From the IMG/VR virus record IMGVR_UViG_2639762844_000004: a DNA stretch of 36,600 nucleotides; one strand, written 5' to 3'. The DNA comes from a virus (Duplodnaviria > Heunggongvirae > Uroviricota > Caudoviricetes). A program made the position numbers. This document shows, in pieces, positions 3,001 through 6,000 of this stretch. The first letter of the stretch is position 1. The number at the start of each line of letters is the position of its first letter.

Positions 3001-6000
3001 GAACTATCCCTTTCTGTGCTGTCGTTGCATCCTGTGCGGTGTATTTCCCGTTAGCCAGGTCATACGCGGCCTTAACGGCTTTTGGCGTTGCCGCCTGTGA
3101 CTCGGAAGTGCTGTTGGTCGCACTGCTGAGCTGTACTATCCCCTTTTTCGTCGTGCTCGCATCCTCAAGCGCCACGGCGGATGCAATATCCTCTGCCCGT
3201 TTTGCTGCTGTCTCGGCGCGCGTTGCCGCGGATTCCGCCGTACTTTTGCTCTGTGCTGCCGCTGCCGCACTGCCAGCAGCCTCTGTCGCCTTCGTGGATG
3301 CCGTCGTGGCGCTGCCCCTCGCTGCTGACGCCTGTCTGGTCGCCTCATCTTTTGAAGCAGACGCAGATGATGCCGATGACGCCGCCGAACTGGCGGACGA
3401 TGCGGCAGCCGTTTTTGAGGATTCTGCGCTGGTTTCCGACGCTTTCGCGTTCGTTTCGGATGTCTTCGCTGCGGAAGCAGACCTCGCTGCTGCGCTGGCC
3501 TGTTCAGTGGCTTCGCCAGCCTTCGTTGTGGCTGTTGAAGCGGATGATGCGGCGCTTTCTGCCGATTTTCCGGCGGCGGTGGCACTGACTGCTGCCTCCT
3601 CTGCCTTAATGGACGCCTCACGGGCCGATGATGCAGCTGCTGTCTCAGAGTCTGCCGCAGCTGAGGCGCTCTGTTCCGCTGCCGTTTCAGAAGACCTGGC
3701 ATTCGTCTCGGACGTTTTTGCCGCCTTCACGGAATTTCCTGCCGCCGTTGCCGAGGAGGCTGCACTGCTGGCGCTTGTGGAGGCGTTCGTTTCTGATGAT
3801 TTTGCCGCCTCTTTGGAGGCCGCCGCATCTCTGGCTGAAGTGGCGGCTTCTGACGCTTTCGTCGTCGCAGTGGATGCAGAAGTGGCTGCTGATTTTTGTG
3901 ACGCTGCAGCATTCGTTTCTGACGTTTTCGCCGCACCGGCACTGGTGGCCGCCGCGCTTTTTGAGGACTCTGCAGCGGCAGCACTTTTTGATGCTTCAGT
4001 GGCCTTTGTTGATGCCGTTCCTGCGCTGGAAGACGCCTCCTGAGCCGAAGTCGCGGCCTGTCCGGCTGACGTGCTGGCTGCACGCGCTGAGCCTGCAGCA
4101 TCAGTCGCATGGGTTGCCGCCTCACGGGCAGATGTGCCGGCATCACTGGCTGACTTCTTCGCGGCTGCCGTGTTCTGTGCCACCGCGGACGCGTTACGCG
4201 TCACCTCTTCCACCATCAGTTCAAAACGGCGCAGAGCCTCCGGACGGGCATCATCCTCCGTCATGGCACCGAGAAAATCATTCAGCGTACCGGGTCGGGA
4301 ATCTTCATACACGGTGATGGTCCCGGCATGTGACGGCGGGAATCCTTCCACCAACAGAATAACGCTGTACTGACCGTACTCAACGTCCATGCTGTAACGC
4401 CCGGCTTCATCCGGATTTTCTGAGGCCAGCGTGTTCACCACCACCGTGGTGCTGTTACGTTTTGCTTTCAGCTGGATTGTGCAGTTCTGTACCGGTTTTC
4501 CTGTGCCGTCTTTCAGTACACCTGAAATCTTTACTGCCATATTCACCCCACAAAAAAGCCCGCCTGAACCGGCGGGCTGTCATAACACTGTGTTACCTGG
4601 CTAATCAGAACTTATAACCGACACCCACGATGAAACCGTCAGTGCGCCAGTCGCCACTGCCGGAGCCTTCATAAGCAATATCAATGGCCACGGATTCGGT
4701 CGGGTTAAACTGCACGCCAGCTCCCCACGCCAGAGACGTGTTGCTGTGACGACCGTCATCACTTCCGGTCAGCACGTCGTGCGTTTTCCCCTTGTTGTCA
4801 GTTACGCGGAGATAATCCCCGGAGAAAGTCGACACACGGCTGTAAGCCACACCCGCCATCGCATACGCGCTGAACCATTCATTCACGCGCACAGACGGCC
4901 CCGCCATTACGCTGAACCAGCGGTTACGAACGGAATCTTCATGCCAGCGAGTATCGCTGTAATGGGTCAGCTGGCGATTCTTGTCTCCTGCATAGCTGAA
5001 TGACGTCACCAGCCCCAGCGTATCCGTAAACTCATAACGGTATTTCACGTTAATCCCGTTCAGATCATCACTGCCGGGAACGTTGGTCCGGGCATGAAGA
5101 TACCCCGCGCTCAGCGTGGACTGATGTTCAGACGCCCATGCAGGCGCACCGGATACGGCCAGACAAATGGCTGCGGACAAAATGGCGGCACAAACTTTAC
5201 GCATAATTACCTCTCGCTTTTCTGCAATAAAAAAGGCGTCATTCCTGACGCCATTTATTGGGGTTATAAATATTTCAACGAATACTGATGCCGGAAGCCG
5301 CTTTTTTGGTCACAATCACCGTACAGTCGGTGATATTGCCTGCCCCCTGATTGCCTTTCTGGAAAATCTTAAACTCCAGAGTGACGCTACCACCACCACT
5401 AGGCATATCAATAACTGCACTGTAACTACCGGGAATGGCCCCTTTAGTTTCTCTGGATGCGATTAATACGCCGTTTTTGCGAACTTCAAAACCATAACCC
5501 GTGTATCGCGTGCCTCCTGGGTTATTTCCGCTCCCCGGATCGTCATACGCTATACCGTTAAAAATAATGGGCGGAATAATAATCTGGCGGTCAAAGTTAT
5601 GATCATCGCTGATGGTGACTGTAACCGTACCGTTTGGTGTTTCCGTGTTACCCCACGTACCGACTTTTTTCGGGAAGGCTTTTGATACAGCTTTAACGAA
5701 ATCCCCTCTGACCTGGGTCGCCTCCAGCATGCCCTTAATCGTACAGTTTTCATTTACCGTGACATTGTTGAGCGTTCCTGAGTTCGCATTCACACTACCA
5801 CTGATATCCGCATTTTTAGCGGTCAGCTTTCCGTCTGATGTCAGGGAAAATACCGGAGGACTGCCACCGCTGGTAATGGTGGGGGCTGTCAGGCGCTTCA
5901 GGAACACGTCGTTCATGAATATCTGGTTGCCCTGCGCCACAAACATCGGCGTTTCATTCCCGTTTGCCGGGTCAATAAACGCGATACGATTGGCGGCAAC

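Follow-up and report, generated by a model that had tools for sequence, protein, structure and literature searches.

A phage 434-type receptor-binding module, predicted to be OmpC-directed, in the J protein of a defective lambdoid prophage

The J protein encoded in the 36,600-nucleotide caudoviral sequence analyzed here (IMG/VR record IMGVR_UViG_2639762844_000004, hereafter the window) couples a body common to phages lambda and 434 with a C-terminal receptor-binding module that, as judged by alignment, is the phage 434 allele. Because of its 96% identity to 434 J, and in light of the literature on that protein, the receptor of this J is very probably OmpC and not LamB. We consider it highly probable that this 434-type, OmpC-directed J was acquired through recombination between lambdoid phages and is now retained as a reservoir gene in a defective prophage. 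Module exchange of this type is common and already known biology and does not amount to a new finding; its discovery value is little, and the practical gain lies in a more precise annotation, in that J may be described as "434-type, predicted OmpC-specific" instead of generically. The features on which the analysis draws are collected in Table 1.

Table 1. Positions and supporting evidence of the features discussed, in window coordinates.
Feature	Position	Strand	Evidence and remarks
Serine recombinase, Resolvase and HTH_7 domains	317-907	plus	Pfam; adjoins tfa and stf
tfa, tail fibre assembly gene	1005-1580	minus	In-frame stop W99* at nt 1284-1286
stf, side tail fibre gene, 988 aa	1580-4546	minus	ORF list, Pfam; downstream of J, same strand
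lom, Ail/Lom outer-membrane beta-barrel, 434-type allele	4605-5204	minus	Pfam Ail_Lom, E=2e-123
Whole non-lambda, 434-like block	4720-5769	minus	Per-100-nt identity profile; boundaries approximate, within ~50 nt
Terminator-like hairpin followed by T run, between J and lom	5235-5252	minus	Consensus scan
J, tip attachment / central tail fibre protein	5275-8688	minus	ORF list and translation; 1137 aa, ORF intact
J receptor-binding module, aa 974-1137, phage 434 (h434) allele	5275-5769	minus	Alignment, Pfam PF12421, PDB matches
J conserved part, aa 1-973	5770-8688	minus	Identity to lambda and 434; Phage_Tail_Tip match ends at aa 972
Porin, lc/nmpC type	28028-29125	plus	Pfam Porin_1, E=1e-156
IS3-family element, orfA and orfB	30584-31767	minus	HTH_Tnp_1 and rve domains

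To judge by its reading frame and domain content, J is a complete lambda-family tip attachment protein, or central tail fibre. Six Pfam families are detected above their curated cut-offs and occur in the same order as in lambda, namely FNIII-A_GpJ, Phage-tail_3, Ig_J, Ig_J_second, Phage_Tail_Tip and Ig_GpJ_C, with Phage_Tail_Tip covering aa 846-972 and Ig_GpJ_C (PF12421), the C-terminal receptor-binding domain, covering aa 1001-1136. The conserved part of the protein comprises the hub domains, two Ig/FNIII domains, the helical shaft and the beta-prism fibre, all of them common to lambda and 434. Within the tail cluster the gene lies 3' of H-M-L-K-I and 5' of lom and stf, a placement taken from the annotation of the essentially identical region of E. 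coli JNE170426 and from the lambda and 434 records. Two plus-strand ORFs (5167-5466 and 5612-6064) were rejected as shadows of the J frame, the minus-strand frame being conserved throughout with respect to 434 J.

A three-way protein alignment of the window J with lambda J (NC_001416) and phage 434 J (OL657226.1) divides the protein into two parts of very different affinity. Over residues 1-973, identity reaches 96.9% with lambda and 97.8% with 434, which agrees with the initial annotation, where the N-terminal ~960 residues had been described as close to lambda. Its accompanying claim that the last ~170 residues are unlike those of lambda is likewise borne out: aa 974-1137 show 41.8% identity over 153 aligned positions, with 17 further gap positions, and the divergence begins exactly where it had been placed, at J codon 974 (nt 5769-5767). 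Over the slightly longer segment of aa 967-1137 the identity to lambda is 44.4%, as opposed to the more than 90% over the last 170 residues that would have spoken for lambda's own terminus, and the high identity to lambda J aa 974-1132 by which a lambda-type LamB-binding allele would be recognized is not seen. The same module is 96.3% identical to that of 434 (158/164 residues) with no indels, and it agrees equally well with the J C-terminus of lambda h434 imm21.

The nucleotide comparisons give a congruent picture. Between nt 5770 and 8688 identity to both lambda and 434 is 86-100% per 100 nt, and at about nt 5770 the 100-nt values for lambda drop from 90-100% to 40-58%; when the 516-nt region 5275-5790 was searched by sensitive blastn, lambda matched its first 72 nt only. 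Over its full length, the J gene shares 96.1% DNA identity with the J genes of phage 434 and lambda h434 imm21, and its last 426 nt are 98.1-98.4% identical to these 434-type records. At the protein level, the window and 434 versions of J are separated by 27 substitutions in total, six of which lie inside the receptor-binding module (V978I, E980Q, N1019D, I1108V, Q1110H and G1115R, the window residue being given first and that of 434 last).

On the evidence of its domain and structure matches, the J C-terminus is a divergent allele of the Ig-like receptor-binding domain of lambda, PF12421, and not a foreign fold or domain. A comparison of the 164-residue module alone with PDB sequences recovered matches spanning its full length, to the entry "A8 gpJ 713" (9wca, E=1e-33) and to lambda J (8xcj/8iyk, E~1e-24). 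An AlphaFold2 single-sequence prediction for aa 947-1137 had a mean pLDDT of 46. The module swap proposed in the initial annotation is hence supported as the presence of a 434-type allele, with the qualification that the domain is the same PF12421 as in lambda and that the exchanged segment runs on into lom.

Past the J stop codon the window continues to track 434 and not lambda, and the identity profile becomes lambda-like again only at about nt 4720, which delimits a block of ~1 kb comprising the J receptor-binding module, the intergenic region and ~80% of lom. The lom DNA is 76-98% identical to 434 per 100 nt, as against 38-58% to lambda until ~nt 4720, and the encoded Lom shares only 45% amino acid identity with lambda Lom. 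The upstream breakpoint at aa 973/974 falls where, according to Pfam, the fibre-prism domain gives way to the receptor-binding domain. The GC content is 45-47% at the J C-terminus versus 58-64% in most of J upstream of ~nt 6400. The phage 434 record has a terminator annotated at the place equivalent to that of the hairpin found here between J and lom. Given the sharp edges of the block, its inclusion of non-coding DNA and of a second gene, and the accompanying shift in GC content, these features indicate a recombinational exchange of a ~1-kb cassette, and not gradual divergence, as the source of the difference from lambda. Either the 434-type allele could have entered this genome, or the lambda allele could have entered lambda, via homologous recombination between lambdoid phages, with one crossover at aa 973/974 and the other near the 3' end of lom. 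As this case illustrates, what lambdoid phages exchange is the receptor-binding domain along with lom, rather than only the domain or only J. The J module and Lom are both surface-related and share one exchanged block, so that these functions travel together.

Textbooks of lambda genetics have for decades described the h434 host-range allele and its specificity for OmpC. When lambda J is swapped for 434 J, the receptor becomes OmpC, which is the receptor of 434 (PMC3509688; PMC11101478). In lambda, the C-terminal Ig-like domain of the J trimer binds the trimeric porin LamB through four distal loops; as it binds, the domain becomes wider at its base, and the movement passes up the beta-prism and the helical shaft, upon which the tail tip opens (PMC11101478). 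The use of OmpC is also documented for other J C-termini, including that of the EHEC siphophage phi330, whose J domain shares 35-40% identity with 434 and with lambda alike (PMC12502783), and the natural C-termini carried by the A8 and 1A2 chimeras (PMC11338833). OmpC-specific J chimeras accept different subsets of 23 OmpC variants (PMC11338833). In phage 21, which has its own J gene, LamB is the native receptor and a few J substitutions add the use of OmpC and OmpF (PMC11336670); the evolution of lambda to use OmpF has also been mentioned (PMC11101478). Taken with the near-identity to 434 J, this literature makes a receptor other than LamB, as had been suggested initially, the best-supported inference for the window J, with OmpC as the predicted target. 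By analogy with lambda, the central tail fibre would be tipped by three copies of the receptor-binding domain, whose distal loops would dock on a trimeric outer-membrane porin, which for the 434-type allele would be OmpC. As suggested by the lambda J-LamB structures, the binding signal would then be relayed up the fibre, leading to the opening of the tail tip. OmpC is polymorphic among E. coli strains; this, together with the six module differences from 434, the receptors that a few J substitutions can add in lambda and phage 21, and the restricted OmpC range of other chimeras, counts against the OmpC explanation.

The closest characterized relative of the window protein is the J of phage 434 (UMO75286.1, OL657226.1), which lambda h434 imm21 (OM418627.1) carries as its h434 host-range allele. 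Both proteins are of 1137 aa and are 98% identical in amino acids overall, their modules align without indels at the 96.3% given above, and they further agree in the downstream terminator, the lom allele and the position of J between I and lom. They differ in their setting, in that 434 is a viable phage whereas the window J belongs to a defective prophage at the DLP12 site. With lambda J (NP_040600.1; 8IYK, 8XCJ, 8XCK) the window protein shares the architecture, the six Pfam domains and the C-terminal family PF12421, and presumably also the mechanism, in which a trimer of Ig-like domains engages a trimeric porin (PMC11101478). In contrast to lambda J, its module contains two insertions, of 8 and 2 residues, and one deletion of 6 residues, and its expected receptor is OmpC instead of LamB. 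By sequence, the solved structure nearest to the module is that of A8 gpJ (9wca/9wcb). This naturally occurring J C-terminus stems from an E. coli prophage and, when transferred to lambda, was shown to employ OmpC as receptor (Brodel et al. 2024, PMC11338833). The A8 protein is thus also OmpC-directed but represents a different allele, with about half of the module residues identical, as estimated by eye from the HMMER alignment, and with different loop lengths.

When 50,697 phage records were searched with the module by tblastn, the amino acid identities followed a bimodal distribution, with 74 records at 94.5% or more, 169 at 38-46% and none between. By this measure the 434-type alleles are a discrete cluster, set apart from other J C-termini. 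The class takes in 434, lambda h434, mEp460, cdtI and phage 2851, along with many Stx1a-, Stx2a- and Stx2c-converting phages, and a 434-type module was found in 2091 of 5426 complete E. coli genomes (~39%). Variation within the class is confined to few sites, among which a recurrently polymorphic patch is formed by residues 1108 (I/V), 1110 (Q/H) and 1115 (G/R/W). The window carries I/Q/G and phage 434 V/H/R at these positions, which account for three of the six differences between their modules. The PhiR/ECOR13 phage literature and a 2026 receptor-prediction preprint yielded no receptor data for lambdoid phages carrying the 434-type allele. Another record encountered in the search, MW057783.1, is labelled "Campylobacter phage CJLB-4"; its tblastn match to the module equals that of the lambda records (37.9%, with the same E-value and bit score) and occurs at a lambda-like position in a record of 48,361 bp, a length close to that of lambda. 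Judging by these similarities, the record seems to be mislabelled lambda DNA.

Among other explanations for the C-terminus, the least improbable is that the module is indeed 434-like, but that its six substitutions shift or broaden the specificity toward OmpF, toward a porin of the NmpC/Lc type, or toward certain OmpC alleles other than K-12 OmpC. The location of residues 1108, 1110 and 1115 in the polymorphic patch of natural alleles is consistent with such a shift, as are the few changes in J by which phage 21 can gain OmpC and OmpF as receptors (PMC11336670) and the differing acceptance of OmpC variants by OmpC-specific chimeras (PMC11338833). The 96.3% identity to 434, uninterrupted by indels, and the tight single cluster formed by all 434-type alleles argue against it, and alleles with the I/Q/G patch are present in phages grown on K-12 or ordinary laboratory E. 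coli, such as mEp460_ev081 and HannyBb, although this is a weak argument as the records do not state the receptor. On balance we consider a shifted specificity unlikely. A conceivable role of the same patch as a specificity switch, which would fit the tail tip to the OmpC variants of different E. coli lineages, with co-carriage of Lc serving for receptor masking, is somewhat less doubtful, though still a tentative proposal. Were it correct, this common allele family would constitute a set of fine-tuned OmpC-variant readers, and its frequent but not obligatory association with the Lc porin might be explained by masking of the receptor in lysogens.

Two further alternatives appear very improbable, and to about the same degree. 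According to one, the module still binds LamB, and its divergence from lambda reflects neutral drift within a LamB-binding family; membership in the same domain family as lambda is compatible with this, and lambdoid phages with their own J, such as phage 21, do natively use LamB (PMC11336670). Yet the h434 J, to which the window protein is 96% identical, represents the classical switch from LamB to OmpC, and the module shares only ~40% of its residues with lambda, from which it also differs by indels in the distal portion of the domain. According to the other, the difference from lambda arose by accelerated point mutation under host-range selection without any exchange of modules. Receptor-binding domains are known targets of positive selection and the fold is conserved, both of which would be in keeping with this scenario, but it is at odds with a drop in identity from 90% to 58% inside a single 100-nt interval, with the extension of the block across a non-coding spacer and lom before an abrupt return to 82-95%, with a GC content ~10 points lower across the block, and with bimodal allele identities that have no intermediates. 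The acquisition of a 434-type, OmpC-directed module by recombination is therefore preferred to each of these readings.

The prophage that harbors this J occupies the DLP12 site, with the tRNA-Arg gene and intD on one side and the ompT-envY-nfrA region on the other. Like the cryptic prophage DLP12 of K-12 (which carries nmpC), it lies next to the tRNA-Arg gene and contains intD, quuD, essD, rrrD and nohD; K-12 DLP12 itself is presumably devoid of tail genes. Positions 1-30554 of the window are 99.98% identical to E. coli JNE170426, and the window J is identical to gpJ of that strain (WP_041520804.1). Within the first 22 kb a single base differs between the two, this being the change at nt 1285 that creates the nonsense codon W99* in tfa; the JNE170426 gene is intact and encodes 191 aa. 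The IS3-family element sits directly between the nin/rusA/Q region and cIII-kil-gam-bet-exo (flanks 29315-33960), and no N, cI, cro, cII, O or P gene is present in the prophage, the immunity and replication genes being replaced by the element. On account of this insertion, the absent immunity and replication genes and the tfa nonsense codon, the prophage is defective, although its structural gene cluster looks complete. Given this defect, J is probably not used for infection by the element on its own. It is best viewed as an intact gene in a cryptic prophage, whose realistic role is at most that of a reservoir allele which a superinfecting lambdoid phage could acquire through recombination.

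The presence of a porin and Lom in the prophage, already pointed out in the initial annotation, is confirmed by their Pfam matches (Table 1). The porin gene lies between quuD and essD, i.e. between the Q antiterminator and lysis genes, and its product is 99.5% identical in amino acids to Lc of phage PA-2 (J02580.1), a comparison limited to the 2.8 kb of available PA-2 sequence, outside of which J falls. About 14 of ~27 distinct porin-carrying lambdoid phage records also have a 434-type module. A strict linkage of the two was considered and rejected, as only about half of the porin carriers have the module and the wild-type 434 record is not among them; from these counts the Lc porin and the 434-type module appear associated, but not strictly linked. 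According to work by Schnaitman and colleagues (1975-1986), PA-2 is reportedly an OmpC-dependent lambdoid phage that adsorbs to OmpC, and its lysogens are said to make Lc and to have lowered OmpC and OmpF, which amounts to masking of the receptor. An OmpC-directed J combined with an Lc-type porin would thus be a known theme. In K-12, nmpC is interrupted by IS5. The 434B record (OL657227.1) contains a porin with an annotated IS5 insertion after codon 346, located in a "region of 434 nonhomology", which suggests that 434B acquired the DLP12 nmpC::IS5 region from a K-12 host.

Two minor observations pertain to the tail fibre genes downstream of J. The serine recombinase beside tfa and stf is placed like the Pin/Gin/Cin invertases that adjoin invertible tail-fibre segments; no convincing inverted repeats bounding such a segment were detected within positions 1-5300 of the window. 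The stf gene contains an internal direct repeat at 2838-3146 on the minus strand, visible as an off-diagonal BLAST match, in which two copies of ~177 nt (2838-3013 and 2970-3146) are 92% identical with an offset of 132 nt and lie in a very GC-rich, A-poor part of the gene.
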